A stretch of 32,000 nucleotides of DNA from Acaryochloris marina MBIC11017 (GTDB lineage Bacteria > Cyanobacteriota > Cyanobacteriia > Thermosynechococcales > Thermosynechococcaceae). The notes under the pieces were generated by a model. That model was not told the DNA's origin, ran no database searches, and worked only from the letters and a program-made list of their open reading frames with translations. Every line of letters begins with the position of its first letter. The first letter of the stretch is position 1. Made by a program: the position numbers and the translations under genes. Below are positions 11,088 to 32,000 of this stretch, piece after piece. The stretch is from positions 210,001 to 242,000 of the forward strand of contig NC_009925.1 of assembly GCF_000018105.1 (NCBI RefSeq), given 5' to 3'.

Positions 11088-11110
11088 CTGTCTAAAGTGA
11101 TAAAAGAGGG
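11088..11110. repeat. Right terminal inverted repeat of the IS (CTGTCTAAAGTGATAAAAGAGGG)
   Basis: Exact reverse complement of 9719-9741. Confidence 0.9.
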
Positions 11111-11174
11111 TTATAGCCGCCAGCTGTATATTCATTTCAGCAATCTAAGGTGATCGAGTGGATGTACACCTAGC

Positions 11175-13541: not shown

Positions 13542-13928
13542 CGACTCAAGATGATAATTCCATCTATGCTTTTCCTAATATGCCCTTTAAAAGGTATATC
13601 TAACTATCGGAATTCGATTGAAATAAATTATTCCTTAATATAATTAAGGATATTTTTTCTGTCGGCTAGTTTAGTAGCCTAAAAATAAAAATCTATTGTC
13701 AATAAACTGGATTTGAAACGGGAAACACATACACTTCAGAAAATAGAAATCAGGACAACTTGAATCAATCGTTCTGAATGAAAAGCTAGGCAACCGAATT
13801 GATATAATTGTACTATCGTGCGATAGTCTCGGACTCAGGATAACTGGTCAATCCTTCTTATATTCTCATTACGAATAATCCCACGTCCATCTACGAAGAG
13901 TATGGATAGCTCGGATGTACAACTCAAA

Positions 13929-14312
13929 TCATTCATCGGAAGTTAAACTATCAGGACGCAGAGCATTCAGCTTTGATAAAAGCCTCTGAATCGCTGCTAG
14001 GGACTCAATCAGATCTGATAGCTCTGTTTCTAATGTTGATGCTAGTAATTCCGTCAGATCTGATAGCTCTATTTCTAATGCTAATGAGAGGTCAAACATT
14101 TCTTGAGCATTCGTTGTCACTCCTTTATCAACGACATCAGTTGCCAGTTGATATAGCTGTATTAAGTTCCTTCTTAAATCAAGTAGTCTACCAGCTAAAT
14201 GTTCACCTGGAGGGTTAATCAACCTATAAAGAAGATTCACTGCAGCTAACAAATCAACCGTCTCAAAGTGTTGATTTAAATACTTCCATTCTTCATAAGA
14301 CATCGAGGACAT
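13929..14312 (-). CDS. Hypothetical helical/coiled-coil protein with an internal 15-residue duplication
   Basis: 127-aa ORF with Leu/Glu-rich heptad-like sequence. It contains the in-frame 45-bp tandem repeat at 14009-14098. Confidence 0.5.
   Translation of the reverse strand: MSSMSYEEWKYLNQHFETVDLLAAVNLLYRLINPPGEHLAGRLLDLRRNLIQLYQLATDVVDKGVTTNAQEMFDLSLALEIELSDLTELLASTLETELSDLIESLAAIQRLLSKLNALRPDSLTSDE
14009..14098. repeat. Two tandem 45-bp units inside the CDS 13929-14312
   Basis: TCAGATCTGATAGCTCTgTTTCTAATGtTgATG (from 14009) and TCAGATCTGATAGCTCTaTTTCTAATGcTaATG (from 14054). The period is 45 nt, i.e. 15 codons. Confidence 0.8.
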
Positions 14313-14676
14313 AGGCTGCCAAAATTATTCACTAAAGCAACTTTTACAAGCTCAAACAAATGCATCTCCTCAAGCAGCTTGAGGTTGCATGTCATCACTA
14401 AGATAAAACAATTCATGAAAGGGACTAAGGCTTTTATAAGTATATAAACCAATAAAAGAATTAAAATCAATTAACCCTCATACTCCGTTAGATTGGCTTG
14501 AATACGGAACACTCTGCAATTATTCCAAGCCTTCTCTTCACTGGATCAGCCCGTTGGCCCCGAACAGTAACACCCTCTCGCATCTAGGTCGGAATGGTGT
14601 CCATTCTGTTCAACCCAATGAAGGGATTCTACATCGAATCAAGCTTGAACGATTTCTTATGAAGCAAGAGACGTAA

Positions 14677-15048
14677 TTATCTCATAGTTTTTTTCAAACC
14701 CAGAATCCAAAATATTCGTCGCTCTACTTTAGCTAATTGACCCAGAGGTTGACTGCTAGTACTGGTTGATCTGCTCAAAATTGTTTGGAGTTGAACGATT
14801 ACTTCAAGATCCCGAGCCATCAGACTAATATCCAGTTCTTCTAGGTACAAACTTTCTAAAACATGGTTGATATCAGATTTCTCATCGGCTACTATTCCCG
14901 CACCTTCTACAATAAAGGACTGAAGTTGATTGGCAGATTGTGCAAGGAGTTTACGCAAGTAATAGCAGGTGGTCACTGTTACTTGATCACTAATAGGTTT
15001 CGCTGAGAGGGGTGATGAGTGGGTGGTCAAAATAGGTGCAGTTTTCAT
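14677..15048 (-). CDS. Hypothetical protein, 123 aa
   Basis: ATG-initiated ORF on the same strand as the neighbouring ORFan. No motif recognised. Confidence 0.45.
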   Translation of the reverse strand: MKTAPILTTHSSPLSAKPISDQVTVTTCYYLRKLLAQSANQLQSFIVEGAGIVADEKSDINHVLESLYLEELDISLMARDLEVIVQLQTILSRSTSTSSQPLGQLAKVERRIFWILGLKKTMR

Positions 15049-16636: not shown

Positions 16637-16766
16637 TAGACCTCTTGCAATATTCGTTTCATGATGTGCTACTGACGAAAGAAATTCAGCGATCTGACTC
16701 GGATTTTAGTCCTCTAGCATATCGTTAGTTGAATTATGCAAGAGGTCTAATAACAGTCGCTGAATT
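16637..16766. repeat. Two interleaved perfect inverted-repeat pairs in the leader of ORF 16802
   Basis: Pair A: TAGACCTCTTGCA (16637-16649) with TGCAAGAGGTCTA (16737-16749). Pair B: AATTCAGCGA (16683-16692) with TCGCTGAATT (16757-16766). The order along the sequence is A1-B1-A2-B2. Confidence 0.75.
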
Positions 16767-18004: not shown

Positions 18005-18757
18005 TTACGGAGAATCCGGTTGGACGCGCATATTCCGAATGTCGAGTACAGCTTGACCAGATATCAAGTGTCCGTCTCCCTTAAGGCCCAGTTCTAGCGT
18101 CACTAAAGCCAAGATATCTGCGTCTAAAGTTTGGTTGCCTAGATCAACATTGCCACTGTGAGGGAAATGGAACCAACCTGGATGTTGGGCACTCAGAGGT
18201 GCTTTAAAAGTGGTCCATTCCTGATTAGAAGAAACACAAAGCGGTTGATATTCGAGTCCGGGGTTACCATATCCCCAAACCTCACCATCGCGTTCCATCA
18301 GGCGAAGGCCAATACAGACTGGATCTGAGGAGCGGGCTTCAAAGGTGAGAAGACTCTGCTTGGGAAGCCGCTCTGGAATGAGTCTTTTAGGCGCAATACT
18401 GATATTGGCTCCATACCCTTCTCGGGAGAACTGAATGCTGAGATGGGGCAAAGTCCCTTGACGATCAATGAAGCTCTTAACCCAGCTATTGTCTAAGCCT
18501 TCATGTTGTTCAGCGTCTGGATCAGCCCAAATTTTGGCTAGGTTGTCTGATTGCAACTTGAAGTCTTGAAAGATGCCATCTTTAGACGCTTGACCAATTG
18601 CGGGCTTAAGCCCATGGTAGCGGTAAATATCTAGAGTCTTCTGAGTTGATAATTGGGCAAAGCTACTGCTTGGTAACCCGCTCATAATCAAGAGACTGAA
18701 TAGGATAAAGCGTAAAGCCATGAGTCTAGAGAGAATGACACTGGCTATAGCGTGCAC
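18005..18757 (-). CDS. Secreted hypothetical protein. The likely true start is the ATG at 18721.
   Basis: From the ATG at 18721 the protein begins with a typical Sec signal peptide, MALRFILFSLLIMSGLPSSSFA followed by QLS. The longer form in the track begins with a GTG. Confidence 0.7.
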   Translation of the reverse strand: MHAIASVILSRLMALRFILFSLLIMSGLPSSSFAQLSTQKTLDIYRYHGLKPAIGQASKDGIFQDFKLQSDNLAKIWADPDAEQHEGLDNSWVKSFIDRQGTLPHLSIQFSREGYGANISIAPKRLIPERLPKQSLLTFEARSSDPVCIGLRLMERDGEVWGYGNPGLEYQPLCVSSNQEWTTFKAPLSAQHPGWFHFPHSGNVDLGNQTLDADILALVTLELGLKGDGHLISGQAVLDIRNMRVQPDSP

Positions 18758-18840: not shown

Positions 18841-19413
18841 CTAACGGGGTAAAATGTTTTGGGGCGATCCAAAATTTTACCCTTGCTACGGTTGTCAACT
18901 GCGGAGTGCTTCAATGCTATCGGTTTGGCTGGTCGTTGGGGCCTGTGATTTGCTAGTGCTAATGTACTATCTTGACCTGGACTTCACTGTTGCGGAGCAA
19001 CTCTTGAGCGAAGCGATCTGCGTGTGGGGGATGGGTATCGGTCAAGGGACGTGGAATAAGCGGACCGGAGGGAGCATTATGCCGCGAAAGGGCTGGACTG
19101 GCAGGGTCCTAGAGCTACCCTGGAAAGCGTTAAACAAAGAAGAAAACCCCGGTATAGACAGGAGGGTAAGGCACCCCATAAATTTTCTTTTTTGTTTAAC
19201 TGCCCAAGCGGCGAGCTTTTCGCAGCGGAGCAAAGCGGAGCGAGAATCTTGCTTTCTACTCAGCGATAGCTACCCAAAAGCCTTACTCACCAAGCCTTAC
19301 AGCCAATCTCGACGACTCCGGTCTCATCATCGAACAGGAATATTTGGTCATCCAGCGTCCCACCGTTGATATAGTCAGGGCAGTAACCTGAGCAACGTTA
19401 GCCAGTAGATCAA

Positions 19414-20028
19414 GTGCCTGACATCCACCCCAGAAGCAAAGCCCGCCGCTCTCAGAATCAGATTCCTGGGTTTCCAGAGAAAAAACGAGAGTTGTTCATG
19501 CAAAAAATTAGCCTGGGCTTAGGAGTGGGTGACGCTTGCCTTTTGGTTGATTTAGACCCGTGGAAAGTCCAATCTCTATTGGACGAGGGTCAAGCTGTTT
19601 TTGAGTCCAGAGGATTAGAAACTACAGGCGTTATTTCTATCACGAAATCGGAGATAAAAACCCCAACAGAGGGTCTATACCTGGACTACCAAAAGGCCCG
19701 AATCGCCCTCAAGGAAAAGGCCCTGACTTCTATCGTCAAGTCTAAAAACATATTCCAATGTCATAAAGGAAAATTGATGTTGGAGCTATTTTTCGGTGGT
19801 GAATTTAACAGTTCTAGTATCAAAGAATCCGAGATTCAAACAACTATTAGTGTCGTTATGGCCTATGTCATGGAGCAGCTAGGACCCAGCCACAAAAAAG
19901 CATTGAAAGCCGTTCTAACCTCCAACAAGGACATTTTAGATATCCCCAAGTCAGAGTACAGAGCAATCAAGCGTATTGCAAAAAAGATACGCTCAGATAA
20001 GCAAATGACCATAGATTTCGCTGCATAA
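19414..20028 (+). CDS. Hypothetical protein with an N-terminal HTH-like segment. The probable start is the ATG at 19498 (176 aa).
   Basis: It is the only plus-strand ORF in the element. The ATG at 19498 is preceded by GAGAG. The N-terminus ISLGLGVGDACLLVDLDPWKVQSLL is HTH-like. Resemblance to small-terminase-type proteins is only weak and motif-level. Confidence 0.5.
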   Translation: MPDIHPRSKARRSQNQIPGFPEKKRELFMQKISLGLGVGDACLLVDLDPWKVQSLLDEGQAVFESRGLETTGVISITKSEIKTPTEGLYLDYQKARIALKEKALTSIVKSKNIFQCHKGKLMLELFFGGEFNSSSIKESEIQTTISVVMAYVMEQLGPSHKKALKAVLTSNKDILDIPKSEYRAIKRIAKKIRSDKQMTIDFAA

Positions 20029-20132
20029 CTTCAAATTACTCGCCATAGCTTCAAATAGCTTAACGTGCCTTACGTTTACTTTTGTTAACGAACTATTGGG
20101 CTAGGTGGGTGAGGGTAAGCTGGGATTGCTGT

Positions 20133-21101
20133 CTAATAATACCTGCGATATCTTTGTTGAATTTTGGATACTTGCTTGTTGAAGGTTTTCAAGGCACTCT
20201 CAAACTCGTGGGGGCCATGGATTGCAGTTGACAGGTGACCTGAGACAAACTCAGGTGCTAGCTCTGGGATATAACTTTCCAAACTAGGGAACCTATTGCC
20301 CAGACCTTTTCTGATCCGCCGTCGTATTGCAATTTCAAGGCCATCAGGAGGACCTAGCGGGATCTTTAGCTCACTAAAAATCGGGGATTCGTGCTGTGTG
20401 CGTCGTTGGTAAAAATTTACACAAGCTTTTTGCTGTTGTTCAATCCAACACTGGTCTATGGCTTGAACCCAGGCATAGGCAAATTGGAGGTAAGGATCAT
20501 CAGAAGCCTGGATGCTTTCGGCATTGGTAGGGGTTCCTGAGATTATCCGCTCTCTGTAGGCGTCCAACCCTTCATTGATTGCTTCGATTATCGTGTAGGG
20601 TTCAAATCCTGCTCGTCTTGCACTATCTACGATCGCAGCCCCCTGATTCGTCCGGTCAGTGAAGCAATGCAATCTTGCCGTATCGATAAAGTTAAGGGCT
20701 TTGGCTTCTAATACTGCAATAGTGGCAGGGCCAGTCAGAGGTTCAAAGCGGTATCTGCAGGCTTTTATTTCGCGATAGATCTGAACCGAAACACCAGCTT
20801 GTTTTGCTAGTGCCGCAGTGTCAGGGATTGGGGGGAGTGGATCGGGTTCTGAGACAAAGATCATCTCTGGATAATCCATGCGCAAGCTAGCCATAGTCCG
20901 CTGTCGTTCTACAGGATCGCTCCTGAGCTGGGCTTCCATTTCTTGCATTTCCCACTTATCGGCCAACCGGAGATCTGTAGCACTAGCACAGCCATAGTAA
21001 GACAGCGGTAGCCCTGGCAGGTGCCCGGTCGCCTGGTATATCGCCAAAAGTCGCTCAGGTGCAGAGAGATGGTTAATTTTTTTGGGGCTTTGCTCAAACA
21101 T
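20133..21101 (-). CDS. Hypothetical protein, 322 aa
   Basis: Long ATG-initiated ORF, last in the minus-strand gene train. No motif recognised. Confidence 0.6.
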   Translation of the reverse strand: MFEQSPKKINHLSAPERLLAIYQATGHLPGLPLSYYGCASATDLRLADKWEMQEMEAQLRSDPVERQRTMASLRMDYPEMIFVSEPDPLPPIPDTAALAKQAGVSVQIYREIKACRYRFEPLTGPATIAVLEAKALNFIDTARLHCFTDRTNQGAAIVDSARRAGFEPYTIIEAINEGLDAYRERIISGTPTNAESIQASDDPYLQFAYAWVQAIDQCWIEQQQKACVNFYQRRTQHESPIFSELKIPLGPPDGLEIAIRRRIRKGLGNRFPSLESYIPELAPEFVSGHLSTAIHGPHEFESALKTFNKQVSKIQQRYRRYY

Positions 21102-21147
21102 TTGCTTGGGGTCCTTACTGGGATTTTTGGAGTGGGGATGGCAATGC

Positions 21148-21179
21148 TATTTTCTCTGGTCAGAGGATTTTACTTGGCT
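21148..21179. repeat. Copy A of a 32-nt direct repeat with a dyad-symmetric core
   Basis: TATTTTCTCTGGTCAGAGGATTTTACTTGGCT matches 21440-21471 at 30 of 32 positions. Confidence 0.85.
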
Positions 21180-21427
21180 TGGGTTCTTTTGGCCCTGGAT
21201 CGAGTCCCTTTGGGAAGTTGCCGAGTCCAGGTTAGAAGGTTTAAGGGACTGCAAGCTCTGTGATTGTCCGAGAAAACATGCAGGACTCTGGCATAGTCCG
21301 ATCGCTCTCGGTCAATCGAAAGTCTTCCGCCACAAACAGCGCAGTAGGCCCCTTGGTCATCCTCTAGGACTTTGGGCTGATACCGGGCTGACTGAGACTT
21401 GGAAGCTTTGGCTTGGGGGTTTGACAT
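21170..21427 (-). CDS. Small basic protein with a possible zinc-ribbon (CAVCGG...H..C), 85 aa
   Basis: ATG-initiated ORF in operon spacing with its neighbours. It has Cys/His pairs and basic termini. Confidence 0.45.
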   Translation of the reverse strand: MSNPQAKASKSQSARYQPKVLEDDQGAYCAVCGGRLSIDRERSDYARVLHVFSDNHRACSPLNLLTWTRQLPKGTRSRAKRTQAK

Positions 21428-21439
21428 GGCTAACTGAGT

Positions 21440-21471
21440 TATTTTCTCTGGTCAGAGGATTTCACTAGGCT
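21440..21471. repeat. Copy B of the 32-nt direct repeat
   Basis: TATTTTCTCTGGTCAGAGGATTTCACTAGGCT. It lies 13-44 nt upstream of the ATG at 21427 on the minus strand. Confidence 0.85.
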
Positions 21472-21845
21472 GCTTTGGCTAAGTGCCGGGACTTGCTTGC
21501 AACAGTTGAATCGGACCAGTCAGGTAAACGCCATTCTGGTACGTCTAGACCATCAGGGAAAGCAGCACAAGGGCCAATACCACGAGGTTGAGGGTTGCAA
21601 GTGTCGGGGTTAATTGCGTTGAACTTAAGCCCGTTACATTGATAAGAATGCAAGGTTTGCCATTGAAAAATCTTTTCGAGTAGAACAGGGATTTTCTGTA
21701 GCTGCGACTGAAAATAATTAGGCTGATTTTTTTTGAGCCAATACTCAAATTGCCCGCAAAAATCAAAATACAAAATAGTAATCAATCTGCTTTTGAATCT
21801 TGGGAATGCAATCGATTTGATTTTGAGTATCCAAAATTGTGCCAA
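21465..21845 (-). CDS. Hypothetical Cys-rich ORF. It is probably the C-terminal part of a frameshifted gene continuing from 21763-22158.
   Basis: It overlaps the upstream ORF by 83 nt in a different frame. The sensible-looking sequence starts only around ILYFDFCGQFEYW, at the T-rich overlap. Confidence 0.4.
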   Translation of the reverse strand: MAQFWILKIKSIAFPRFKSRLITILYFDFCGQFEYWLKKNQPNYFQSQLQKIPVLLEKIFQWQTLHSYQCNGLKFNAINPDTCNPQPRGIGPCAAFPDGLDVPEWRLPDWSDSTVASKSRHLAKAA

Positions 21846-22158
21846 GAACTACAAAATCATTTTCGTCTAAAAAGTGGTTCTGACCAAAGTAATCAAATTT
21901 TGGATTTCTGAGTTGGCATAAACGCCATTGTTCAAAAATCTTGTACTGACCGCTTTTGTCAGACCTTGCTATCGGGGAAAGGAAGAAATGACTATTAGAA
22001 AATCGCCCTGCATTTGGAACACTAAAGAAAATAGGTAAAGCCCCAAAGGTATAACTGCCCTGCTTTGAGCCGTTTTTTATTGTTATGGGTTGCGGCGTCA
22101 AACGCGAGGATAATTTTATTTTAGGTGAGTCAAATCCTGGAGCGAGTAGGGGGTACAT
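21763..22158 (-). CDS. Hypothetical ORF, 131 aa. It is probably the N-terminal part of the same split gene.
   Basis: ATG-initiated ORF that terminates in a T-rich run (minus strand tattttgtattttgattttt). Confidence 0.45.
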   Translation of the reverse strand: MYPLLAPGFDSPKIKLSSRLTPQPITIKNGSKQGSYTFGALPIFFSVPNAGRFSNSHFFLSPIARSDKSGQYKIFEQWRLCQLRNPKFDYFGQNHFLDENDFVVLGTILDTQNQIDCIPKIQKQIDYYFVF

Positions 22159-22199
22159 TGCTTGAAGAAAAGTGCAATTACCCCCTAGTTTAGCTATGT

Positions 22200-22883
22200 T
22201 TAATTAAGGCCGCAAAGTTTTTTGTAGGGAACGCCCAATTGAATAGACAACCCTTGGAGGTGTAGCTCAAGAAAACCTAGCGATAAGTTGAACGTCTCCA
22301 TAAAAATGGAAAAGTCCTCCCCTAAATACTCTTGTAAAAGGTCTTCTAGTTGATCCCGGCGTGCCTTTAAGCGGCAACCTAAAAGAACAATGTGGTTAGC
22401 TATCTGGTCTTCTGCGGAAAAGCTTGACTGGCTTTTCATGTCTGCTAGTATCTCGTCGTGGCACTCTACGCACTCGCGGCAATCGAGAAAAAAATTTGTC
22501 CAATCCTTGGTTAGGTGTTTCTTTTCCGTAGGGTCCATTGTGGTTTCACCTCCCCCCGCTTCTCTTGCTTGATCAGCGGCATACTCCCATTCTGCGGGAA
22601 GGATTTTACAAGTAAAGGGCGTTTCAACTAGTACAGCTAAATCTGTGGCTGAGGGAGGCATACCTTGTTTAATGTTCTTTAGTCTATCTAGCACTTGATC
22701 GCTCAGCGTGGAATCATCACGAGGTCCCATAGATGCATAGTGCCGTGTGTTTTTTGAGTGCTTTGCGGCTTTAAGCCCCTGACGGCGTTCTGCGAGTCTT
22801 TTCTTAGCGACAGATTTTGTTTTAGTTCTTCGTGCAGTTCGCTTTTGTCTTTTTGCTGCCTTGATCTTGGCATTCTTGCCCAT
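22200..22883 (-). CDS. Hypothetical protein with an extremely basic N-terminal arm, 227 aa
   Basis: MGKNAKIKAAKRQKRTARRTKTKSVAKKRLAERRQGLKAAKHSK followed by an acidic, Cys-containing body (CRECVECH). Confidence 0.6.
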   Translation of the reverse strand: MGKNAKIKAAKRQKRTARRTKTKSVAKKRLAERRQGLKAAKHSKNTRHYASMGPRDDSTLSDQVLDRLKNIKQGMPPSATDLAVLVETPFTCKILPAEWEYAADQAREAGGGETTMDPTEKKHLTKDWTNFFLDCRECVECHDEILADMKSQSSFSAEDQIANHIVLLGCRLKARRDQLEDLLQEYLGEDFSIFMETFNLSLGFLELHLQGLSIQLGVPYKKLCGLN

Positions 22884-22901
22884 GTCTTTAATGCTCCTCA
22901 G

Positions 22902-23924
22902 TTAATTGCTCAATCCAACATGCGTAGGCGCAATAAATACCCAACGAGTGAGGGTATTGCCTTTCCCGTAGTGCTGCCTTCTCCAATGCCCACGACGCCA
23001 ATGAGGAGACTTACTTCTATCGCTGCCATCCGTGCTGTGACTGGAAGCAGATCGATACCCTTCTCCGATCATCAAAGGATGATAAGTTGTATGTCGCTTT
23101 CCTCTGCGGGCTATCCCAGTAGTAGAAGAACTTTTCCGTTTCCCGGTCCTATATTCTGGCGCGTTCTGTTCAGCCCAAAGAATCGTAGAAAGCAGAACAG
23201 ACAGGGCCGTCTCTACCTCGCCTAGGTCGTTTGACTGGGATCCAGGGTTGAGATCAATCCCTTTGTCAACGCGCAAGAACCCGGATTCTTCCCTGAAGGT
23301 TACCAGTCCTCCAACTACGGATTTCCCCGTCTCTATCCCACCCCAAACCAAAGACCACGAATCTTGATCCTTCCGATCTCGGCTAAAAGCATATTCTGCT
23401 CTCCCTTCAGAAGACGTGCTTACTATTGAGGGGAGTTCCTTTGTGCCTGGCTCTACCAAAGAATAGACAAGACACACCATCTCTCCTGTTTTGCTAACGA
23501 TACTGCTCCGAGGCAAGACAACTAGACCATATTTAGGCAATGTGAATCTGTTCGGGATTTCGGTTGGCAAATCCGTTTTCAAAAAATCAGAGAGCAGATC
23601 CTCGTCCAAAAAATAGTAAGGAAAATGGGGGCTGGCTGTTAGTGCAGCGGTAGCATGGTAAACATTGGCACGCACAGGGTCTCTAGCTACTGATTCCGCG
23701 TTTGAACCAGCGGACACCGACACCAAGGCATCAGCAACCATGCGGTTGGAGTAATGACTGCTCAGTCTAGGTGAGAATTTTCGTTCGTAGCTTTCCCGAA
23801 GGTCCTCACGAGATGGTGTCAACACCCCCGCACCTCTCATCATTTTTCTAAAAGTCTTAGGGTGCATCCCCGCTTTTTTCATCGATTTTTCCATGTCTTT
23901 GTAAATCTTCTGGGCATCTATCAT
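22902..23924 (-). CDS. Hypothetical protein with a basic His/Arg/Trp-rich C-terminal motif, 340 aa
   Basis: GGAG lies about 9 nt upstream of the ATG. The C-terminus reads KSPHWRRGHWRRQHYGKGNTLTRWVFIAPTHVG. Confidence 0.65.
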   Translation of the reverse strand: MIDAQKIYKDMEKSMKKAGMHPKTFRKMMRGAGVLTPSREDLRESYERKFSPRLSSHYSNRMVADALVSVSAGSNAESVARDPVRANVYHATAALTASPHFPYYFLDEDLLSDFLKTDLPTEIPNRFTLPKYGLVVLPRSSIVSKTGEMVCLVYSLVEPGTKELPSIVSTSSEGRAEYAFSRDRKDQDSWSLVWGGIETGKSVVGGLVTFREESGFLRVDKGIDLNPGSQSNDLGEVETALSVLLSTILWAEQNAPEYRTGKRKSSSTTGIARRGKRHTTYHPLMIGEGYRSASSHSTDGSDRSKSPHWRRGHWRRQHYGKGNTLTRWVFIAPTHVGLSN

Positions 23925-24119
23925 TTAAGTTCTCCGTTAATCATTGGTTAATTAGGAATACGGTTTTAGATTAGGAGGATTCTCCAGAGCAGCCAAAACA
24001 GCCGTTACAGACCAACTCACCCCGGCCAACACTCCGCCTGCGCACCAGAGACCAACCCCGCTTATCGGGGGAGGTATTTCTTTATTTCTGTTGCCTCTTT
24101 GCTTGACCTTTGAGCTTGA

Positions 24120-27100
24120 TTACTCAATCAATTTGTCGAGTTCCGCTATCTGATCTTCAATCGATCGTCTAAATTCGAGAAACCATTTGGGATAAGATCC
24201 ACTGTTTCTATCTAAAGAGTCATTAGAGTTATAAAACAGTGGATCTGCAAGGCTTCGGGCGTCTACACAGTCTTTAGCGCAAGCGTCATCAATCTGCTTT
24301 TTGACGTATAGCACGGTGCCCCGAAGCAGTTGCTTGCGGATTTCATGAACGTCTTTGTTCACGATCGCAGCATATCTGCGCTGAGATCCCCCGTTACCCG
24401 TTCGAGCGACACAGGGCATCGGATCATAGCTCAGGCGCTTTACAAGCCGATTTATGACGGCTATAGGGCTGTCGTTGGCTGTTTGGAGCTGGAAAAGGTC
24501 CCATAACTCTTGCTGATGTTCAACGAGATAAGCCCAAAACTGGGACTCCCTAACCTCAGCTTCACTGATATTGTTGCCCCGGCCATGAGTGCGGTAAAAA
24601 TCGGCTACCCCCGAATCATTAATAAAAATCTGTTCTCTCAGGGTTCCCCGTAGGACTCCATGCAAATGATCACCGTTGGCGGCATCTCGCTTAAATTTTT
24701 GACATTGATCTTTCGTAAAAAGATCGGAGTTCAGCAAATATCGGGCTAGCCGTGTGGCACATGATCTCAACTGTCCGTTCTTGTGGACGAGGGTGTAATA
24801 GATAAAGTCAGGATCGGACCATTGAGACTCTGGGTACTCCAATCTCAATAAGGCCAAGTCAGCCGCTCTCTGCTCTGCAACCGTGGAAGTAGGTGAATTT
24901 TTTATTCTCCGGGCTTCTGCCTCGCTTTGAATAAAATGACTTTCTTCTACGACTTGCAGATACTGATGAGTTCTCAGATTCTCAAGGATGCAGGCAACAT
25001 CACCTTGACGTGATCTGATTTCGTCCGGTTCTCTGCCACCATCAAAAACAACTCTTCCTTGGCTGTTGTACTCTTTTAGATTTTCACGCTCAATAAAAGT
25101 GATGCCGTTCTCTGTGTAATCGGCATAATGATCAAGAAAGCACTCAGCAAAATGGTAAGTTTCGTATTTTAATTGGGCCATCCGTTGAGCATTTACTAGG
25201 GATAGAAATTGCCCCGTATTCTTTGAACTGGATAGGGCGTCAACAAAAGATGTACCTTCCTTGATCTCCCAGCCCTGCAGGTTCTTAGCAGACTGACTCC
25301 CTGTAACTTCCACATGTCGGGCAATTTGTTCCTGCTCAATAGCGCAGAACACAAAGAACTCGTAAACTCGATCTTCGCATTCGACAACGTTATCCAAAAC
25401 GTCGAGATAATCCTCTGCAAACTTAGAACCGAACAACCACTCTAAGAAAACATCGTTGAAGAACTCCCCAAAAAAGGCTCTATCTTTGTGGAACCTTTCA
25501 AGCCAATTGTCGGCTAGTACAAGCGTACCACCCCCAGCACAAGCAAAAGCGCAGGCTCTACCCTGAGCAAATAGCTCAAGTGCGCGGTAGGTAAAGCCTT
25601 CCATACGTCCGTGGATTGCTTCAAAGCACGCGATCGCATCGTTAAGATTGAAACGATTACCTGTTTTCCCCAGTAACTTCAACTCAGCTCGATTCTTTCG
25701 GGACTGATTAGCATGATTGTCTTTCCACTCTTGGGTGATATCCAAAGCAACCCGATTATTTAAAACTCTTGGTGCATAAACAATAGTCTCTGGTCTCGAT
25801 CTGTTCCGGGACAACGCCTGAGAGATATCCTCTAGGCTTCCCCAGGACGCCAATACCAGCGTTGCACTAATATCAAGTGCATCACCATAGAACGACAATC
25901 CTGTACCAATCAGCGGCGATCTCATAAGGTGCTGACCGTCTTTGGTCCCTTCGGCAATCACATTCTGCAATTCCTTCGTTTTCTTGCCAGATCTCATACA
26001 GTCACGGGTTGCGGCAAACAGGGGGAAAACCAGCTCCTTAGAATCTAGAAATGCCTCATGCATTAATCGGATCAAAGCCTTGGCTGACTCCCAGCTTAGC
26101 CCCATCCCTAACAGCTCTTGCCACGGTGCCCCATAGCGTTGCTGAGTGACAAATAGCTCCTTAGTCCATCCCTTATCTTGAGTCTCTAACCACTGCTCGA
26201 CCTTCAGCTTTTGGTGATTCTTTTCGCCACCGATCCAGCCGTCATACTTTCCAACTGGCGAAAAGTCCCAATAAACCAGGTGCTGTGTAACCTCATTCCC
26301 TGCCGTATCTTTTTTGCTGGTAGACTTCACCAAGACATGCTGATCCGTAACCTCATCCACCCAAAATGGCTGCTGTAGTGCTTCAAGGAAACGCCATAGC
26401 TTCAGTGCCTCCGGGCTGAAGTCTATGGCCTTAATTTCAAAAAGAGGGGCCTTAGCGTACTTATCCCAATCTTCAGCCCCCAACTCTTTAAGCGCTTGCT
26501 TAGCCTTGGCATCCCTAAAAATATGCTTGAGATATCGTTGAGGTCGAGTAAACTCCTGAAACTTAAGGATGTCATTTGCACTTTGGCAGTGAATATCCAG
26601 CCGACGAACGCTTTTAGGCTGAGTGAACTGTAGTCTGCTATCCTTGCCAAACCCAAAAGCTTCATGGTCGCCCGTCAAATGAGCGCTGACTGCTCCTAGA
26701 TAACTTTCCTGAGTCAACGTCAACCCGTCTTTGAATTGCTCCTTATATTGATTGACAAAGACGTTGGCCTCGACATCCATCCACCACTCGAAGAACCTAA
26801 CCGCGATTTCACTCAGATTTTGCTGGGCAATGATCACGGGCCAATCATTCTCCTTGGCATGATCAAGAATCCTCTTGAGCTGATTGAGATTGGCCTGTCG
26901 TTGGGTGGCGTGGGTGCTGCCTAAAAGATCCAGGATTACCCGATCGGTCTCATCAATAAAGACCACAACCTTATCCGTAGCAAATTTCTCAAAACGACCA
27001 AAGTTAAAAAAGCCTTGCAAACATGCCGAGATGTCACCTAATCCTAGACCCTCATATTCCGCCGCTTGTTCGTCGTTCCTATCTGTTGCCAATGCAGCCC

Positions 27101-29729
27101 CGTTCTCAAGTGCCAAAATTTTCAAGGGTGCAGCATAAAACTTTTTGCACTCCAACAGCTCAAGCAATTGCTCTACTAACGTTGTCTTACCTGTTCCGGT
27201 GGGACCACTGAGGGCAAAAAGATTAGATTTAGACTCGTCCTGATGAATCTCAATGATCTTGTCAGCCAGCTTCACCCCGTCAATCAGACCCGCTGCCATA
27301 TATCGGGCATTGAACACCCCGGACCCTGCTCGATCCTGCAACTTTGGCAATGTATGCTGATAAATCCGCTGATTAATCAACTTACTCAGATGACCTGTCA
27401 GCTCATTCAGGCTGGTGTATAGGTGCTTTTGGCTGTCTATCCTCACCAACACCTTGCAACCATTCCCTTCCAATGCAAACCAAGTCCGCATCAGATTGAA
27501 CTTAAGCCGGGTCAACCCTTGGGCGTCGTTACCAAGTCCCTCAACATCCGCATGGAGCGCGATAGTTCGATCCTTTAGGACCTCTGTGTACTCAGGTCTT
27601 AGCTGCGAGTCGATGCATTTGGTTGAGATGCCCTTGAGGGTCAAAGATGTCAAGCGATCGAGTTGAATCGCCTGGAGTTTAACGTTATCAAGCTCAATCT
27701 CTGTATCTAGCTGACTGGCATCACTGGTTAACAGAGGTACAACCCCCTCACCTAATGAAGCCAAACCCTCGCTTATATTGGTTGCTTCCAATGCGTTAGC
27801 AGCATTCTTTGATTTAGCTACAAGGGTTCTAACTCGTTCTGAAGGCTTCCACGTCCCATCTACTTGGCCGTGAATATTCCTGATGATCGACGATAGACCG
27901 ATTGAATAACAGGTACTGCCCAGCTCCTTAGCGACATAAGCCTCATCCAGACCAAAATTATCAACACCAAAATTTTCTGCTAATTCGTATCGCTCCTCCG
28001 CAGTTCCGCCGTCACTGTGATAAATGCCAAGCAGAATTGACCAGCGCTGGTGGCGATCACTAAGTTCAGTACCCTTTTGGTGATAGGTTAGCCCTTGATT
28101 GATTGGGTCGCTGACAACCTCCAAAATTTCTTCTGTAGTAAGACCGTGACCTGTAATCCCGGCTGCAATCCTCGCTTCTTGAGCCAGTCTTAAATTTTTA
28201 TGCTCCTCCACGTTTTGAGTGGCAACAGCTTCCACAGGCGTCTTAGGAGCTTTGGCCTTCACTTTCTTGGCTTTGATACCTTTAGCCCGCTTCCCACCCA
28301 GTAAGGCGTCGTTCTCCTCGTCTGACTGTAGGAAAACATCAGTGACCTTACGGCCCGTTACGTCGATAGTGTTGTTACCTTTGGGGGCTTTAACAATCTG
28401 AAGTCCTAAGCTCTGGTAATACTTCCAATCTTTACCGCTTCGGTAGTCTTTCCCGTATTCCTGTCTAAAAAAGGATAAAAGCCCGTCATTCAGCTCACTG
28501 AACGATAGGTCCCTCGACCCCAATTGCATGATCGATTGATTAGTGATCACATTCTCATTGCCGACCCGCACCGCACGGAAAGCACCAGCCATGCGCAATG
28601 CCCTACCTGCAGAAGCAACCGCATAGTCACCCCCTGTCACAGAAATAGCGGTCTTCAAGACCTCGTAGTACTGATCCCTGCTTTCAGGATGATCGATTGT
28701 TGGGATATAAAAATGAATGGATTTTTTGCCAGACCACAACATCAGAAATTTGGTCCCAAGAAATTGTTGCAGCGTCACCAACCTGGCAAGCTGTTCATTC
28801 AAGCAACCGTCATCAATCTCTAGCCCTATGAAATCAGGCATTGTCCCAGGTAAACTGGTCGCTTTACGATCTTTGATCTGACCGTGGGGGAACCAAGTAA
28901 CGGCTTTTCCTTCAGCCCTGGCTAAAAACTTCAGCAGTTTCACTGGGTACACGGCCCTCGACCCATCCTTGAGCCATCTTCGAGTCCCATCATCATTAAT
29001 TCTTACTAGCTCCTCAACACCAGAGCTTCCTAGGAATCCTCTATATCCTGACCACTTGTCAACAGCGGCCAAAAAGCGCCCATGCTCACCAACCAGCTCA
29101 TTAAAAAACAAGTTTGCTGCCTTGGCTCCCAGGAAGTCTGGATTGCTAGTGCAAACCAGATCCGAGGTCACTTGATCGTAGGGTTTACCCCAAGCAATCA
29201 ATCCCAGCTCGTCTAACACCTCTGGACGGTTAGGCTGAGGATTCCTGACATCCACGGTATTCTTGCGGCGCAATGCCAAGTTCTCAGCAGAACTCAGTCC
29301 CTCAACAAGCTCAGGAACAATCAAATAAGGATTAACCTTGGCCTCTTTTTTTGCTCCACTCGCTGAAACGTTTGTACTACCTTTGAGGCCGTTAAATTCT
29401 AAGGATGCCGTTTTCTCGGCTGGAGAATCTAAGAAAGCTAGCCGTTCAGCATGAGTCATCCCCTCAGGCGCATACTTTGAAGGGTTGGCGCAGATATCCT
29501 TGGCTCGAAATGTTACAGAATCGTTACAATTTTCTACTTTTTTCTCGGTCTCTTTTGAAATATTTTTTGAATCGCTAGAAGCGTTGCCCTCTGTGGCTTT
29601 GGGGCTGACACCACTGGCGAGTGGTTCACTTGTACTTGCGTTTGTAGTGGTTGATTGATTACAATCGCATGTAACAAATTGTGCGATTTTTAAAGGTGCC
29701 GACATGGGAATTCTCTTGATTGCTTGCAA
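24120..29729 (-). CDS. Giant (1,861-1,869 aa) multidomain protein: AEP-type primase-like domain, P-loop NTPase (helicase-like), and a large uncharacterised C-terminal region
   Basis: AEP-like motifs: LEIDDG (res 303-308), SGKKSIH-FY (res 333-341), D368 followed by RALRMAGAFR. Walker A is GPTGTGKT (from res 842, nt 27183-27206). Walker B is VVVFIDETD (about res 920). The track start is a TTG at 29729; the ATG at 29705 (MSAPLK) is a likely alternative. Confidence 0.85.
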   Translation of the reverse strand: MQAIKRIPMSAPLKIAQFVTCDCNQSTTTNASTSEPLASGVSPKATEGNASSDSKNISKETEKKVENCNDSVTFRAKDICANPSKYAPEGMTHAERLAFLDSPAEKTASLEFNGLKGSTNVSASGAKKEAKVNPYLIVPELVEGLSSAENLALRRKNTVDVRNPQPNRPEVLDELGLIAWGKPYDQVTSDLVCTSNPDFLGAKAANLFFNELVGEHGRFLAAVDKWSGYRGFLGSSGVEELVRINDDGTRRWLKDGSRAVYPVKLLKFLARAEGKAVTWFPHGQIKDRKATSLPGTMPDFIGLEIDDGCLNEQLARLVTLQQFLGTKFLMLWSGKKSIHFYIPTIDHPESRDQYYEVLKTAISVTGGDYAVASAGRALRMAGAFRAVRVGNENVITNQSIMQLGSRDLSFSELNDGLLSFFRQEYGKDYRSGKDWKYYQSLGLQIVKAPKGNNTIDVTGRKVTDVFLQSDEENDALLGGKRAKGIKAKKVKAKAPKTPVEAVATQNVEEHKNLRLAQEARIAAGITGHGLTTEEILEVVSDPINQGLTYHQKGTELSDRHQRWSILLGIYHSDGGTAEERYELAENFGVDNFGLDEAYVAKELGSTCYSIGLSSIIRNIHGQVDGTWKPSERVRTLVAKSKNAANALEATNISEGLASLGEGVVPLLTSDASQLDTEIELDNVKLQAIQLDRLTSLTLKGISTKCIDSQLRPEYTEVLKDRTIALHADVEGLGNDAQGLTRLKFNLMRTWFALEGNGCKVLVRIDSQKHLYTSLNELTGHLSKLINQRIYQHTLPKLQDRAGSGVFNARYMAAGLIDGVKLADKIIEIHQDESKSNLFALSGPTGTGKTTLVEQLLELLECKKFYAAPLKILALENGAALATDRNDEQAAEYEGLGLGDISACLQGFFNFGRFEKFATDKVVVFIDETDRVILDLLGSTHATQRQANLNQLKRILDHAKENDWPVIIAQQNLSEIAVRFFEWWMDVEANVFVNQYKEQFKDGLTLTQESYLGAVSAHLTGDHEAFGFGKDSRLQFTQPKSVRRLDIHCQSANDILKFQEFTRPQRYLKHIFRDAKAKQALKELGAEDWDKYAKAPLFEIKAIDFSPEALKLWRFLEALQQPFWVDEVTDQHVLVKSTSKKDTAGNEVTQHLVYWDFSPVGKYDGWIGGEKNHQKLKVEQWLETQDKGWTKELFVTQQRYGAPWQELLGMGLSWESAKALIRLMHEAFLDSKELVFPLFAATRDCMRSGKKTKELQNVIAEGTKDGQHLMRSPLIGTGLSFYGDALDISATLVLASWGSLEDISQALSRNRSRPETIVYAPRVLNNRVALDITQEWKDNHANQSRKNRAELKLLGKTGNRFNLNDAIACFEAIHGRMEGFTYRALELFAQGRACAFACAGGGTLVLADNWLERFHKDRAFFGEFFNDVFLEWLFGSKFAEDYLDVLDNVVECEDRVYEFFVFCAIEQEQIARHVEVTGSQSAKNLQGWEIKEGTSFVDALSSSKNTGQFLSLVNAQRMAQLKYETYHFAECFLDHYADYTENGITFIERENLKEYNSQGRVVFDGGREPDEIRSRQGDVACILENLRTHQYLQVVEESHFIQSEAEARRIKNSPTSTVAEQRAADLALLRLEYPESQWSDPDFIYYTLVHKNGQLRSCATRLARYLLNSDLFTKDQCQKFKRDAANGDHLHGVLRGTLREQIFINDSGVADFYRTHGRGNNISEAEVRESQFWAYLVEHQQELWDLFQLQTANDSPIAVINRLVKRLSYDPMPCVARTGNGGSQRRYAAIVNKDVHEIRKQLLRGTVLYVKKQIDDACAKDCVDARSLADPLFYNSNDSLDRNSGSYPKWFLEFRRSIEDQIAELDKLIE

Positions 29730-30056
29730 TTAATTGGTTTTTGTGTCTTCGGTGGCACCGTTGGAAGTTGTGTCCGCCAAGATCTCGCTTCCTTCGGTGT
29801 TTTGACTAAGACCCGGCGGCCCTAGTGATTTAAGGAATCCTCGCTTTTTTGAGCGGGGGTTTTTGCTATCTGGGGTCTGTTGCAGTTGGCTGACCATGCC
29901 GTTAGTCTCCTTTTGGTTGGTTGTGGCGATCGGGGTGAAAGCTCGGGCGAAAGACATTTTGATTGGCTCCTTTAAGTGGTTGCTTAGGGTTATGGTTTGC
30001 CCGATTGGAATACTAGGCTTGCTCGAAAAAAGAGAGAACGTATCCCTAAAAATCAA
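29730..30056 (-). CDS. Small low-complexity protein. The likely start is the ATG at 29957 (75 aa).
   Basis: AAGGAG lies 9 nt upstream of the ATG at 29957. Its stop directly abuts the start of the giant ORF. The sequence is Ser/Thr/Pro/Lys-rich and looks disordered. Confidence 0.45.
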   Translation of the reverse strand: MIFRDTFSLFSSKPSIPIGQTITLSNHLKEPIKMSFARAFTPIATTNQKETNGMVSQLQQTPDSKNPRSKKRGFLKSLGPPGLSQNTEGSEILADTTSNGATEDTKTN

Positions 30057-30140
30057 TTAGGGTGATTTCCAAACTTTTCCAAAAAACGGTTTTGACCGGG
30101 GCCAAAATTCCCAGTAATTAGGGGTACGGTTTCTGAAAAA

Positions 30141-30446
30141 TCACCCCTGTTTCAGCAGACTCCAACCACTTGGAAGCCTGTCAAAGAAATTCTTAATAGC
30201 CCTTTGGTGTGTAACCTCGTCCTCCCAGTGGTGAAGCCGATCCAAAACCAAAGGCAAACACCAAAGTTTTTTTCGGCCAAGTCGCACGAAATGAACCCCC
30301 TGGACCCATTTACCTGCTTGAGTCTGCACGTACAGCGTTGGGGCTGGGATGCCAATCAGTTGCTGCAACTCAACCTGAGAGCAATAGATTTGCCCCCCTA
30401 ACAACTCTGGAAGTGTGGTGATTTCTGGTTCTGGAAAATTTGTCAT
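30141..30446 (-). CDS. Excisionase/AlpA-like HTH DNA-binding protein (putative recombination directionality factor or regulator)
   Basis: The segment SQVELQQLIGIPAPTLYVQTQAGKWVQGVHFVRLGRKKLW fits the Xis/MerR-type HTH pattern (l..El..l.G....tly.....G......v..G.r..w). Its position near an integrase is consistent with this role. Confidence 0.5.
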   Translation of the reverse strand: MTNFPEPEITTLPELLGGQIYCSQVELQQLIGIPAPTLYVQTQAGKWVQGVHFVRLGRKKLWCLPLVLDRLHHWEDEVTHQRAIKNFFDRLPSGWSLLKQG

Positions 30447-30622
30447 TTGTTGCGCTTCTGAGTATCCGAAGCCGATCGCAACCGTGATCCTCAGCCGCCA
30501 CGCATAAGGAATCAGGCCCGATAGGTTCGGGTTAGTTCGTCTCGTTCAGCCGCTAACCAATTTCAGAAATTGCAAAACTTCCTACACAGTTTCCACGCCT
30601 GTGGTTTTTGGAGAGTTTGGTT

Positions 30623-30769
30623 GTGCCCCCGGCAAGTGGGGTTAGTTGCGATTCCTCTAAATTTGGTTTTGGCCTCGACCTGCTCAGAAATGGAATTGAA
30701 AACTTGTTGGATGAGGCTCTTTTAGCCTTTTTGACTGACCGACCGCTGAAACCCAGTGCCTGTCAGTGA
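30623..30769 (+). CDS. Possible 48-aa ORF divergent from the element operon
   Basis: GTG start preceded by GGAGAG (30610-30615). The translation ...KFGFGLDLLRNGIENLLDEALLAFLTDRPLKPSACQ looks protein-like. A weak hairpin plus T-run lies at about 30855-30875. Confidence 0.2.
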   Translation: MPPASGVSCDSSKFGFGLDLLRNGIENLLDEALLAFLTDRPLKPSACQ

Positions 30770-30966
30770 TTTAACAATAGCTCGACCCCTATAAAAAGCG
30801 CATCCGGGGCCTAAACTTTATTTTTCTTAACAATTAACGGTCTATACGCAGCAAGGCTTTCAGCCGTTTTTTTCGTAAACTTGCGTAAAGGTAAAAAATC
30901 GTTGGAGAATTTCGCACTTAAGAATAGTTCTTAGATAGGCACGGTGCCCTGAGAACGCCAAAAGCC

Positions 30967-31812
30967 TTAACTAGCAAGCCTCCCAAGCTTTTTCTTTGTT
31001 CTACCGTGTCGAGGATTGCAAGCATTAGCAATCTCGGAGTCTAGTCTTTGTTTAGTCCTGTAGTAGCGTTCTAGTAGGTTATCGAGGGTGTATTGATGTT
31101 GTATTGACTTTGGTAGTTTACCGAGCCAATTCAACAGCCACAGCCGCGAACCGTGTCTAAGGTTAGATAGTCGTTCTTCGTCAGATGCCAAGTGTTTAGT
31201 AGCCAAGGCGAGAAGTTTATCTGACAGCTCCACACTCCCCCCGGTTAGCTGGTGACTGATTAACTTCTTGAGCTTGCCCCTTTCGTTTGCTCGGTAGGAC
31301 GCTAAAGATGTTTGACTTTTGCCTTTTAAGGCTTCACCTACGAATTCGGGACTGCACATCCACAGGTCGAAAGCAGCCTCTAAAGTGAGAATTGTCCGAA
31401 TAAAATCACCTGGGTTGTCAATCTTTCGATCGATAATCCCTTCCAACGTTTTCAAAGGGGAGTCTTTTCTCGTAACAATCAGGGTCCAAGAATACTGTGC
31501 AAGGGCGCATAGGTCCTCTAGTTGCGTTACTTCCAACCTAAAAATTCTTTGTTTTTGGACAGATAGTCCCCGAGGAAGGATTACTTCTCCATATGTATTG
31601 AGGTCGGAGAGCGCATCAAAGATCTCTTTGTACTTCTTTTTTAGATGGTTGAACTTAATCTGTGATTCTTCGTTGATCCTTCTCTCGGCAATGTCATCCG
31701 GGGGCATCCCATCTACAGCATGCTTAGATAAGGCATTAATCCTCTCTTTTCTGGTTGATGTCGATTTCTTGCTTGATCGGGCTAACTGGTTCTTCTTTTT
31801 GCGCCCTGCCAT
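30967..31812 (-). CDS. Hypothetical protein with a basic N-terminal arm, 281 aa
   Basis: ATG-initiated ORF immediately downstream of the integrase on the same strand. The N-terminus is MAGRKKKNQLARSSKKSTSTRKE. Confidence 0.6.
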   Translation of the reverse strand: MAGRKKKNQLARSSKKSTSTRKERINALSKHAVDGMPPDDIAERRINEESQIKFNHLKKKYKEIFDALSDLNTYGEVILPRGLSVQKQRIFRLEVTQLEDLCALAQYSWTLIVTRKDSPLKTLEGIIDRKIDNPGDFIRTILTLEAAFDLWMCSPEFVGEALKGKSQTSLASYRANERGKLKKLISHQLTGGSVELSDKLLALATKHLASDEERLSNLRHGSRLWLLNWLGKLPKSIQHQYTLDNLLERYYRTKQRLDSEIANACNPRHGRTKKKLGRLAS

Positions 31813-31891
31813 TAGAAGTCCTCCAAAGCTGCCACCACCTTAACCTCTAAGTGAAATCCTCTGTTCAGATAAAAATCATCAGCTGATCTGG

Positions 31892-32000
31892 CTAACAATC
31901 TCTTTCCAGCTCATCCAAATAATCGGCCCAAGCCTGCATCATTTCCCGCCGTTCTTCAAGAAACTCGGTCCTATTATATGCACGCCCCAAAGGACCCCGA
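31892..32000 (-). CDS. Tyrosine recombinase (P4/CP4-57-type integrase), last 36 codons only. The gene continues beyond the window.
   Basis: The hand translation of the minus strand is RGPLGRAYNRTEFLEERREMMQAWADYLDELERDC*. This matches the characteristic C-terminus of P4-type integrases (catalytic-Tyr AYnR...l.eRr.mMq.Wadyl). Confidence 0.65.
   Translation of the reverse strand, partial: RGPLGRAYNRTEFLEERREMMQAWADYLDELERDC

Follow-up and report, generated by a model that had tools for sequence, protein, structure and literature searches.

A strain-specific 14.5-kb block with a P4-type integrase gene and a giant gene related to CyRepA1 in Acaryochloris marina MBIC11017: a candidate integrated plasmid-like element

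The subject of this analysis is a 32,000-nt stretch of the chromosome of the cyanobacterium Acaryochloris marina MBIC11017 (NC_009925.1, positions 210,001 to 242,000; hereafter the window, in whose coordinates all positions are given) and, in particular, a strain-specific block of about 14.5 kb that begins at 18782 and ends 1,271 nt past the right edge of the window (33271), with a GC content of 46.8%. The block combines an integrase gene at its right edge with a gene for a giant P-loop protein, AM1_0239, a small conserved gene next to it, and a set of mostly orphan genes, and it is a candidate for a plasmid-like mobile element integrated in the chromosome. The general design of such an element, an island with an integrase and a replication module, is familiar; its parts are rare. 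The features on which the argument turns are, from right to left:

31892-32000, minus strand: integrase gene, 3' end only; the complete gene reaches 1,091 nt past the window (399 aa, or 369 aa from a later alternative start)
30447-30966, no strand: 520 bp of non-coding DNA preceding the 101-aa gene; a candidate for a promoter or an origin
30141-30446, minus strand: gene for a 101-aa protein, conserved just ahead of the giant gene at each of the two known loci (here with a 75-aa open reading frame, ORF, between them)
29730-29957, minus strand: small low-complexity ORF of 75 aa (108 aa from an upstream TTG), ending 24 nt before the ATG of the giant gene
24120-29705, minus strand: giant protein AM1_0239, 1,861 aa from the ATG at 29705 (1,869 aa from the TTG at 29729)
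28530-28874, minus strand: conserved block near the N-terminus of the giant protein (aa 286-400), whose motif pattern is like that of archaeo-eukaryotic (AEP) primases, a resemblance only
26538-27227, minus strand: ATPase/helicase-like P-loop domain, aa 835-1064 of the giant protein, with Walker A at G842-T849 and Walker B at D926-E927
22902-23924, minus strand: 340-aa protein of the AcrVA2/FinQ family, directly following the giant gene
22965-23009: C-terminal motif SPHWRRGHWRRQHYG of the 340-aa protein, invariant in its alignment

These genes belong to a train that a preliminary description, made from the letters of the window, had already noted, and which proves to be present and far beyond chance. 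In the ORF listing, a co-directional minus-strand run leads from 31812 down to 20133, with a lone plus-strand ORF beyond it (19414 or 19498 to 20028), and 91% of 20133-33091 is genic. The intergenic gaps measure 18, 37, 41 and 68 nt in the distal part of the train and 195, 24, 183, 520 and 79 nt in the proximal part. Stop-free stretches of at least 200 aa on the sense strand add up to 3,060 aa, as against a mean of 2.3 aa in shuffled sequence (200 shuffles; longest 260 aa); thus, the train did not arise by chance. Scans for consensus promoters and terminators gave counts below the shuffle expectation. On the right, the locus could be followed for 7.2 kb past the window on a contig (L001) from a public assembly of the same genome, which is 99.99% identical with a single indel. 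Since similarity to the plasmid pREC3, considered below, stops at 18781 and collinearity with related strains sets in at 33272, the strain-specific block is placed between these points rather than at 19400-32000, the span first proposed for the element; there is no attachment (att) site at 19.4 kb, which lies near the end of the pREC3 homology. The region that is non-syntenic with relatives is larger still, exceeding 37 kb in total with the block included. Searches of Escherichia coli genomes, PLSDB and INPHARED gave no match to the block, its proteins recur exactly in MBIC11017-type assemblies only, and we found no mention of AM1_0236 to AM1_0243 in the literature. Pfam and NCBIfam searches of 18782-33271 returned no relaxase, oriT, type IV secretion system (T4SS) or coupling protein. 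Neither a named defence system nor capsid, terminase or portal genes were found in the block, the latter as had been noted at the outset.

The last 109 nt of the window translate to the C-terminus of an integrase (...RGPLGRAYNRTEFLEERREMMQAWADYLDELERDC or ...AYNRTEFLEERREMMQAWADYLDELERDC, each followed by the stop codon). This fragment had been taken for the end of a P4-type enzyme, and it indeed extends into an intact 399-aa gene on the neighboring contig (L001 6120-7319), whose product matches the Pfam domains Arm-DNA-bind_3 (4e-24), Phage_int_M (1e-29) and Phage_integrase (1e-16), and the profile PRK09692 with an E-value of 6e-68 over positions 5-395 of 413. The catalytic R...K...H-x-x-R...H...Y set is represented by VRPGELR, SKTE, HGFR, HAV and RAY, as read by eye and not from a formal alignment to a solved enzyme. 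By its domains, the product is a full-length P4/CP4-57-type tyrosine recombinase, predicted to be transcribed inward from the island edge. Its closest counterparts in the plasmid database are proteobacterial (43-45% identity).

Past the integrase, the extension contig carries two DUF1400 genes, an XdhC gene and an M23 peptidase gene. Orthologues of DUF1400 are found in three relatives, which we denote L017 (flank 97% identical to MBIC11017 in both amino acids and nucleotides), L012 (83.5% nucleotide identity) and L014 (about 70% nucleotide identity), and in all three a divergent Pterin_bind (folP-like) gene occupies the position that the integrase holds in MBIC11017. Collinearity with these relatives starts at GATTTCTCAAGGAGGATTCCATG, position 33272, which is 1,272 nt past the end of the window and places the right junction about 20 nt upstream of the DUF1400 start codon, in intergenic DNA and not in a tRNA. 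The direct adjacency of the folP-like and DUF1400 genes in three relatives indicates that an empty site exists, which is what the preliminary description had proposed to look for and whose absence it had named as a ground for refutation; only the right junction of it is definable. The integrase therefore lies right at the border of DNA that three related strains lack at this site.

The same intergenic region of the relatives contains a 36-nt stretch, CCTGTAAATATTTACATGGAT(G/A)CATTTACAAGAGAA, in the segments L017 1060-1227, L012 5940-6133 and L014 9810-10000. It is probably a regulatory site, because strains with flanking DNA of only about 70% identity have kept it; in MBIC11017, the insertion has moved it away from DUF1400.

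The giant ORF is annotated as AM1_0239 and is chromosomal; the ATG at 29705 is its most likely start. Its sequence is extremely rare. A word-indexed search of 5.8 billion clusters returned only the protein itself, and phmmer with residues 150-1349 against 1.84 billion representatives recovered two further proteins, P0007 and P0008. Only the former is a full-length relative, the single one among about 15 billion proteins. There was no tblastn match in PLSDB or INPHARED and no sequence match in the PDB, nor did the alignment of the giant protein match any of the viral and metagenome contigs scanned with it. P0007 has 1,918 aa and shares 24% identity with the giant protein over about 1,500 residues. 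P0008, of 996 aa, scores 463 bits against NF042913 (CyRepA1) and 6e-46 against DUF3854, and by these profiles is a bona fide CyRepA1 plasmid replication protein. The CyRepA proteins, such as Slr7037 of pSYSA and ORF B of pCC5.2, are experimentally supported replication proteins of cyanobacterial plasmids, which combine the Toprim-related DUF3854 with a DEXDc helicase-type domain (PMC10079941).

Several comparisons connect the giant protein to this family. Residues 835-1064 match NF042913 with an E-value of 3.5e-15 and 55.9 bits, against a family cut-off of 200 bits, over profile positions 2-212 of 595; P0007 matches the same profile at 9e-20, and the P-loop region of the giant protein also matches Pfam AAA (5.5e-8). 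In the direct comparison with P0008, the ATPase domain (28% identity, E 1e-11) is followed in the same order by a C-terminal motif. By the profile match and this collinear arrangement, the ATPase domain is a homologue of the one in the CyRepA1 family of plasmid replication proteins, with which the giant protein thus shares the P-loop ATPase, the short C-terminal motif and an origin in cyanobacterial mobile elements, and also the logic of an N-terminal priming-type domain followed by a helicase-type one. The differences from CyRepA1 and CyRepA2 are no less marked: the giant protein is about twice as long, about 850 of its C-terminal residues have no counterpart, and its gene is chromosomal and linked to an integrase instead of lying on a free plasmid. 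Moreover, neither it nor P0007 contains DUF3854; the giant protein instead has an unrelated N-terminus with an AEP-like pattern, in which E304-x-D306, S333-G-x-K-S-x-H339 and D368...R376..R379 are invariant between the two. An AlphaFold2 (AF2) model of residues 200-480, built from a two-sequence alignment, was unusable (mean predicted local distance difference test score, pLDDT, 35). Of the earlier label "primase-like/P-loop protein", the second half stands in the form of a CyRepA1-like ATPase and the first is without profile or fold support. The term "replication-family ATPase" is what the similarities favor, and "primase-like" is a hypothesis only. On this basis, we regard the giant protein as the putative replication protein of the element.

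The 101-aa protein encoded upstream has a counterpart at the only other known locus. On the contig that carries P0007 (L008; 17.6 kb, GC content 47.6%), an uncalled ORF at 4571-4828, just upstream of P0007, is 34% identical to it over 91 aa (tblastn E 1.7e-16). Because a homologue of the 101-aa gene precedes P0007 too, the two genes form a conserved module of cyanobacterial mobile elements. P0007 is flanked on one side by a coupling protein (T4CP), whose closest relatives are on plasmids of Nostoc, Gloeothece and Acaryochloris, and on the other by an ATPase resembling VirB4/TraC (E 1e-12 to 3e-15); by gene content, this locus is a cyanobacterial contig of conjugative type. The 101-aa protein is presumably a DNA-binding or regulatory partner. 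It had first been labeled an Xis/AlpA-like helix-turn-helix (HTH) protein, a label that no profile or fold search reproduced; its AF2 model has a pLDDT of 46, and the Foldseek matches to that model are noise. A role as a replication or regulatory partner would fit at least as well as that of an excisionase, because the gene is conserved in L008, a locus without a visible integrase. Thus, of the integrase, xis-alpA and replication backbone initially proposed, the integrase and the CyRepA1-related P-loop protein hold and the xis and primase labels fall away. The low-complexity ORF between the two genes, given initially as 75-108 aa, is present, with 75 aa the preferred length. The 101-aa gene and its homologue in L008 were both skipped by the gene caller of the public collection despite their 34% identity; small conserved genes beside giant ones can drop out of protein databases in this way.

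The 340-aa protein that follows the giant gene, previously counted among the ORFans, has a precomputed match to PF26125 (E 1e-5 or better), as do 4 of 4 of its homologues. Its H308-W-R310-R-G-H313 is invariant and has the spacing of H286, R288 and H291 of AcrVA2, which are needed for activity and are conserved across a family that includes FinQ (10.1101/2022.11.29.518452). The sole match of the family profile in the PDB is AcrVA2 itself (7CI1), weak (E 4.6) and aligned exactly at the motif (PHIRRGHW). The protein therefore resembles this family in its H-x-R-x-x-H C-terminus and in its location on a mobile element, with its nearest relatives on phage-like contigs. By contrast, its N-terminal two thirds are unrelated in sequence, the target-recognition part of the family being variable. 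It adds a cyanobacterial member, and with it a new branch, to the AcrVA2/FinQ family.

The presence of a conflict-related gene beside a large NTPase raises the alternative that the giant protein and its neighbors constitute a defence or conflict system, a large NTPase with effectors, on a genomic island to which the integrase is merely adjacent. The orphan nature of the cargo and weak matches of the giant protein to PADLOC models and to nSTAND and NPHP3_N NTPases would fit this, but these matches involve the P-loop only, and those to PADLOC reach E 5e-4 or worse over about 30 residues round Walker A. The best specific match is instead that to CyRepA1, over 230 residues and with a collinear C-terminus, and the homologue is part of a conjugation cluster, with VirB4 on one side and T4CP on the other. 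We therefore hold a defence system to be improbable. The context of P0007, a T4SS rather than a phage setting, bears likewise on the idea, raised in the preliminary description, of a P4-like satellite, a phage-inducible chromosomal island (PICI) or another satellite that hijacks a helper phage. The order of integrase, small putative DNA-binding protein and large replication-type protein does resemble that of P4 and the PICIs, and the integrase is of P4 type, but no gene in the block supports a satellite: PHROG matches are limited to the P-loop and one family of unknown function, there are no capsid-remodelling, terS, cos or head genes, none of 50,697 phage records gave a tblastn match, and the insertion is not at a tRNA. 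Such an origin is very improbable indeed.

Taken together, these observations lead us to assign a probability of roughly 55% to the reading that the 14.5-kb block is a mobile element of plasmid-like type that was acquired horizontally and integrated into the MBIC11017 chromosome. Under it, the integrase would have inserted the element by site-specific recombination and, after excision, the 101-aa and giant proteins would drive its episomal replication. The giant protein might act as initiator and helicase, possibly with an N-terminal AEP-type priming domain that replaces the Toprim-like DUF3854 of CyRepA. The AcrVA2/FinQ-like protein may suppress a host defence or a competing element, and the five remaining orphan genes could be cargo or regulators, three orphan genes being preceded by an element-specific 16-nt motif that may serve as an operator. 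The intact 5.6-kb ORF and the intact integrase speak for recent function, and missing att repeats and a rearranged left end speak against current mobility.

The left side of the block presents a different picture from the right. Up to 18781, much of the window is 95-97% identical to pREC3, a conjugative plasmid of the sister strain A. marina MBIC10699:

1841-7371: first pREC3-like segment
15025-17601: second pREC3-like segment
17604-18781: third pREC3-like segment
18782-19497, no strand: mostly non-coding left-end segment of the block, with hairpins at 18847-18882 and 19129-19200; no Rfam match and no att-like sequence

The homology ends at …AACGCAT/CCATGAAAA… (that is, …AACGCAT/CCATG…), the slash marking 18781. 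The block may be a discrete element that came to lie beside DNA derived from a plasmid or was joined by such DNA later, or it may form the backbone end of a single large plasmid in the chromosome. In the latter case, it would contribute the integrase, the replication module and an anti-defence gene to an integrated plasmid or integrative and conjugative element (ICE) of at least 37 kb, which would include the pREC3-like sensor-kinase, EAL and FHA genes and would have entered via an att site upstream of DUF1400. The folP-like gene expected as the other flank of the empty site is missing from the entire 32-kb window and from a contig that reaches 3.7 kb further left, which speaks for the larger element. 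A larger element would equally account for the three segments of conjugative-plasmid DNA between 1841 and 18781, for the T4SS genes around the sole relative of the giant protein, and for the absence of an internal att copy between the block and the plasmid-like DNA. However, the plasmid-like part is itself a mosaic that contains an insertion sequence (IS) and a 7.6-kb insertion and whose third segment is not collinear, a structure that hints at accretion in steps; pREC3 holds nothing related to the 14.5-kb block; and window positions 1-1840 and a further contig (L019) look chromosomal (MFS, DoxX, globin, Crp, SDR). A single large integrated plasmid or ICE is accordingly a possible but tentative alternative.

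A number of results count against the block as a discrete, site-specifically integrated replicon, and they are best considered together. On the side of integration, neither ARAGORN nor Rfam detected a tRNA, tmRNA or other Rfam family in the window or on L001, where a tRNA or tmRNA gene next to the integrase had been anticipated. In the window, no sequence resembling attB and no direct or inverted att repeat rises above chance by exact k-mers, blastn-short or Smith-Waterman alignment against shuffles, including the 18.76-19.45 kb interval in which a direct repeat had been expected; the queries were the integrase-proximal 550 nt and the attB region of L017, searched against window positions 1-21200, and the left end may lie beyond the window. 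No terminal inverted repeats of the block were found. The left edge is a recombination breakpoint, because its flank is plasmid-like DNA instead of the expected folP-like gene, and the element thus abuts plasmid-derived DNA as part of a larger mosaic island with no left att site in the window. The assembly graphs give no sign of an excised form at the right junction, which a Logan contig crosses unbranched. On the side of replication, the match to CyRepA1 falls below the family cut-off and covers the ATPase third of the profile only; no AEP primase domain is detected by Pfam at E-values up to 10 with the N-terminal domain alone or by PDB profiles, and relaxed Pfam searches with fragments (E up to 1-10) likewise yielded only the P-loop; the 101-aa protein has no Xis/AlpA HTH match in Pfam (E up to 10) or NCBIfam and no relevant match in the PDB; and the 520-bp region contains no iterons, no recognisable origin and no Rfam match.

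Contigs from three samples all stop near 18697, where unique DNA meets repeated, plasmid-like DNA, which accounts for the stop. This pattern was considered as an excision signal and ruled out, in that the same contig runs across the right junction.

The remaining genes of the block and the motif associated with them are as follows:

30967-31812, minus strand: 281-aa orphan gene; N- and C-termini of the product strongly basic; exact copies in MBIC11017-type assemblies only
22200-22883, minus strand: 227-aa orphan gene; N-terminus highly basic, with a CxxCxxC stretch
21465-22158, minus strand: 230-aa orphan gene, appearing in the window as two ORFs, 21763-22158 (131 aa) and 21465-21845 (126 aa)
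21170-21427, minus strand: 85-aa orphan ORF, one segment of which is rich in Cys and His; located between motif copies 2 and 3
20133-21101, minus strand: 322-aa orphan gene, the end of the minus-strand train
19498-20028, plus strand: opposite-strand orphan gene (176 aa from ATG; 204 aa from GTG at 19414)
31849-31874, plus strand: motif copy 1 (core AAATCCTCTGTTCAGA), in the opposite orientation to copies 2 and 3; it precedes the 281-aa gene by 37-62 nt
21440-21471, minus strand: motif copy 2, 32-nt version, just upstream of the 85-aa gene
21148-21179, minus strand: motif copy 3, 47-78 nt upstream of the 322-aa gene

The 281-, 75-, 227-, 230-, 85-, 322- and 176-aa products have no match in Pfam, PHROG, PADLOC or NCBIfam, and no tblastn match in plasmids or phages. 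The 281-aa gene may be the positional counterpart of a 329-aa gene (a329) upstream of the giant homologue in L008; homology between the two was rejected, the alignment (z-score 3.1) being limited to the basic N-terminus. A 16-nt palindrome-like motif, AAATCCTCTG(NN)CAGA, occurs three times where 0.09 copies are expected, 13-78 nt upstream of the starts of the 281-, 85- and 322-aa genes, with copies 2 and 3 forming 32-nt direct repeats that are 94% identical. It has no occurrence outside the element among 21 loci and, from its distribution, looks like an element-specific operator. The six ORFans originally listed downstream of the giant gene reduce to five genes, two of the ORFs being a single 230-aa gene; apart from the AcrVA2-like one, these are true orphans. 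An extra A near 21770 splits the 230-aa gene. The frameshift is probably a sequencing error or a very recent event in the reference sequence, because it is missing from three independent assemblies, in which the gene is intact.

This frameshift is among the features that might be expected if the block were the decayed remnant of an old integration, a fossil genomic island that has lost the capacity for excision, as are the lack of att repeats, the left end rearranged against plasmid DNA and the unbranched assembly graphs at the right junction. However, all other ORFs are intact, including the 5.6-kb one, which would be expected to gain stops fast if it were neutral; the integrase is full length with its catalytic boxes; and the frameshift itself is absent from the independent assemblies. 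Decay is therefore a possibility about which we are doubtful.

The integrated plasmid-like element favored here can be compared with several known classes of islands. Islands of the P4/CP4-57 type usually occupy the 3' end of a tRNA or tmRNA gene, with direct repeats on both sides. The block has the same integrase domain architecture, with full profile coverage, and the same placement of the gene at the extreme end of the island facing inward, yet it occupies an intergenic site 20 bp upstream of a protein gene, with no repeat found. Integrative plasmids and replicative elements of the ICE and actinomycete ICE (AICE) type, for example those like pSAM2, pair a site-specific integrase with a replication protein of their own. 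The block likewise joins an integrase to a replication protein, a relative of whose gene sits with VirB4 and a coupling protein, but it is without recognisable transfer genes, relaxase or oriT, and no excisionase is confirmed. The defining features of the tycheposons of Prochlorococcus are a recombinase specific to their lineage, hallmark gene profiles that they share, and sites associated with tRNAs (bioRxiv 10.1101/2020.12.28.424599). As in these, an inward-facing tyrosine recombinase at one end is followed by a small replication module and then by cargo, and the block lies at the proximal end of an additive island with other transferred DNA distally. It differs from them in its lack of a tRNA, its P4/PRK09692-like integrase and its different family of replication protein. 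By the features that define them, the block belongs neither to the P4-type tRNA islands nor to the satellites or ICEs, and its giant protein is not a member of CyRepA1.

The locus sets an intact integrase, a replication-type protein and plasmid-derived DNA side by side, and thereby offers a testable place for gene flow from plasmid to chromosome. Acaryochloris has very large genomes and many plasmids, and whole gene clusters have been gained in the genus by unexplained means (PMC9324425). One may speculate that the integrase and the giant-protein module constitute an active "plasmid-docking" platform, through which plasmid DNA shuttles between episome and chromosome by means of a P4-type integrase and a new AEP-like/CyRepA-like replication protein. 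We consider this rather unlikely. If true, it would explain why DNA 96% identical to pREC3 lies directly behind the module in the chromosome and would offer a mechanism for the acquisition of large gene clusters in the genus, and the giant protein would found a new family of replication initiators with an AEP-type domain in place of DUF3854. More modestly, with the giant protein and P0007 the CyRepA-type replication ATPase is now seen in a new and extremely rare architecture, and if the giant protein supports replication it could furnish a new compatible replicon for cyanobacterial genetic tools, a practical aim of the work on CyRepA. Nothing here overturns current understanding.

Further observations concern the left end of the block and the plasmid-like DNA beyond it. 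Within the 700-bp non-coding left end, the hairpin at 19129-19200 is an 18-nt inverted repeat, 94% complementary, with a 36-nt spacer. Adjoining the block on the left, the 250-aa ORF at 18005-18757 has no exact record for either of its two start codons. On pREC3, an unrelated tyrosine recombinase gene ends about 100 bp before the first of the shared segments. The 7.6-kb stretch 7372-15024, which is missing from pREC3, houses a complete IS at 9716-11113 with 35-nt terminal inverted repeats (91% complementary) and a 437-aa DDE_5 transposase. Through a 44-nt direct repeat at 1168-1211 and 7327-7370 (84% identity), the 3' end of a hybrid histidine-kinase gene recurs just past the MFS ORF; the repeat may be a scar that recombination left at the border of the plasmid-like DNA. 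Independent assemblies agree with the window in showing the MFS transporter gene itself (61-1164) broken over two reading frames, and it is probably a pseudogene. Two tandem copies of a 45-nt repeat, 82% identical, lie at 13995-14084 within a 127-aa orphan ORF, in a part of the window (13.5-16 kb) that is low in GC (33-40%). Finally, a 35-nt inverted repeat pair, 43 nt apart, at 16637-16749 resembles a miniature inverted-repeat transposable element, and DNA similar to it adjoins transposase genes on plasmids of Acaryochloris sp. 'Moss Beach'.

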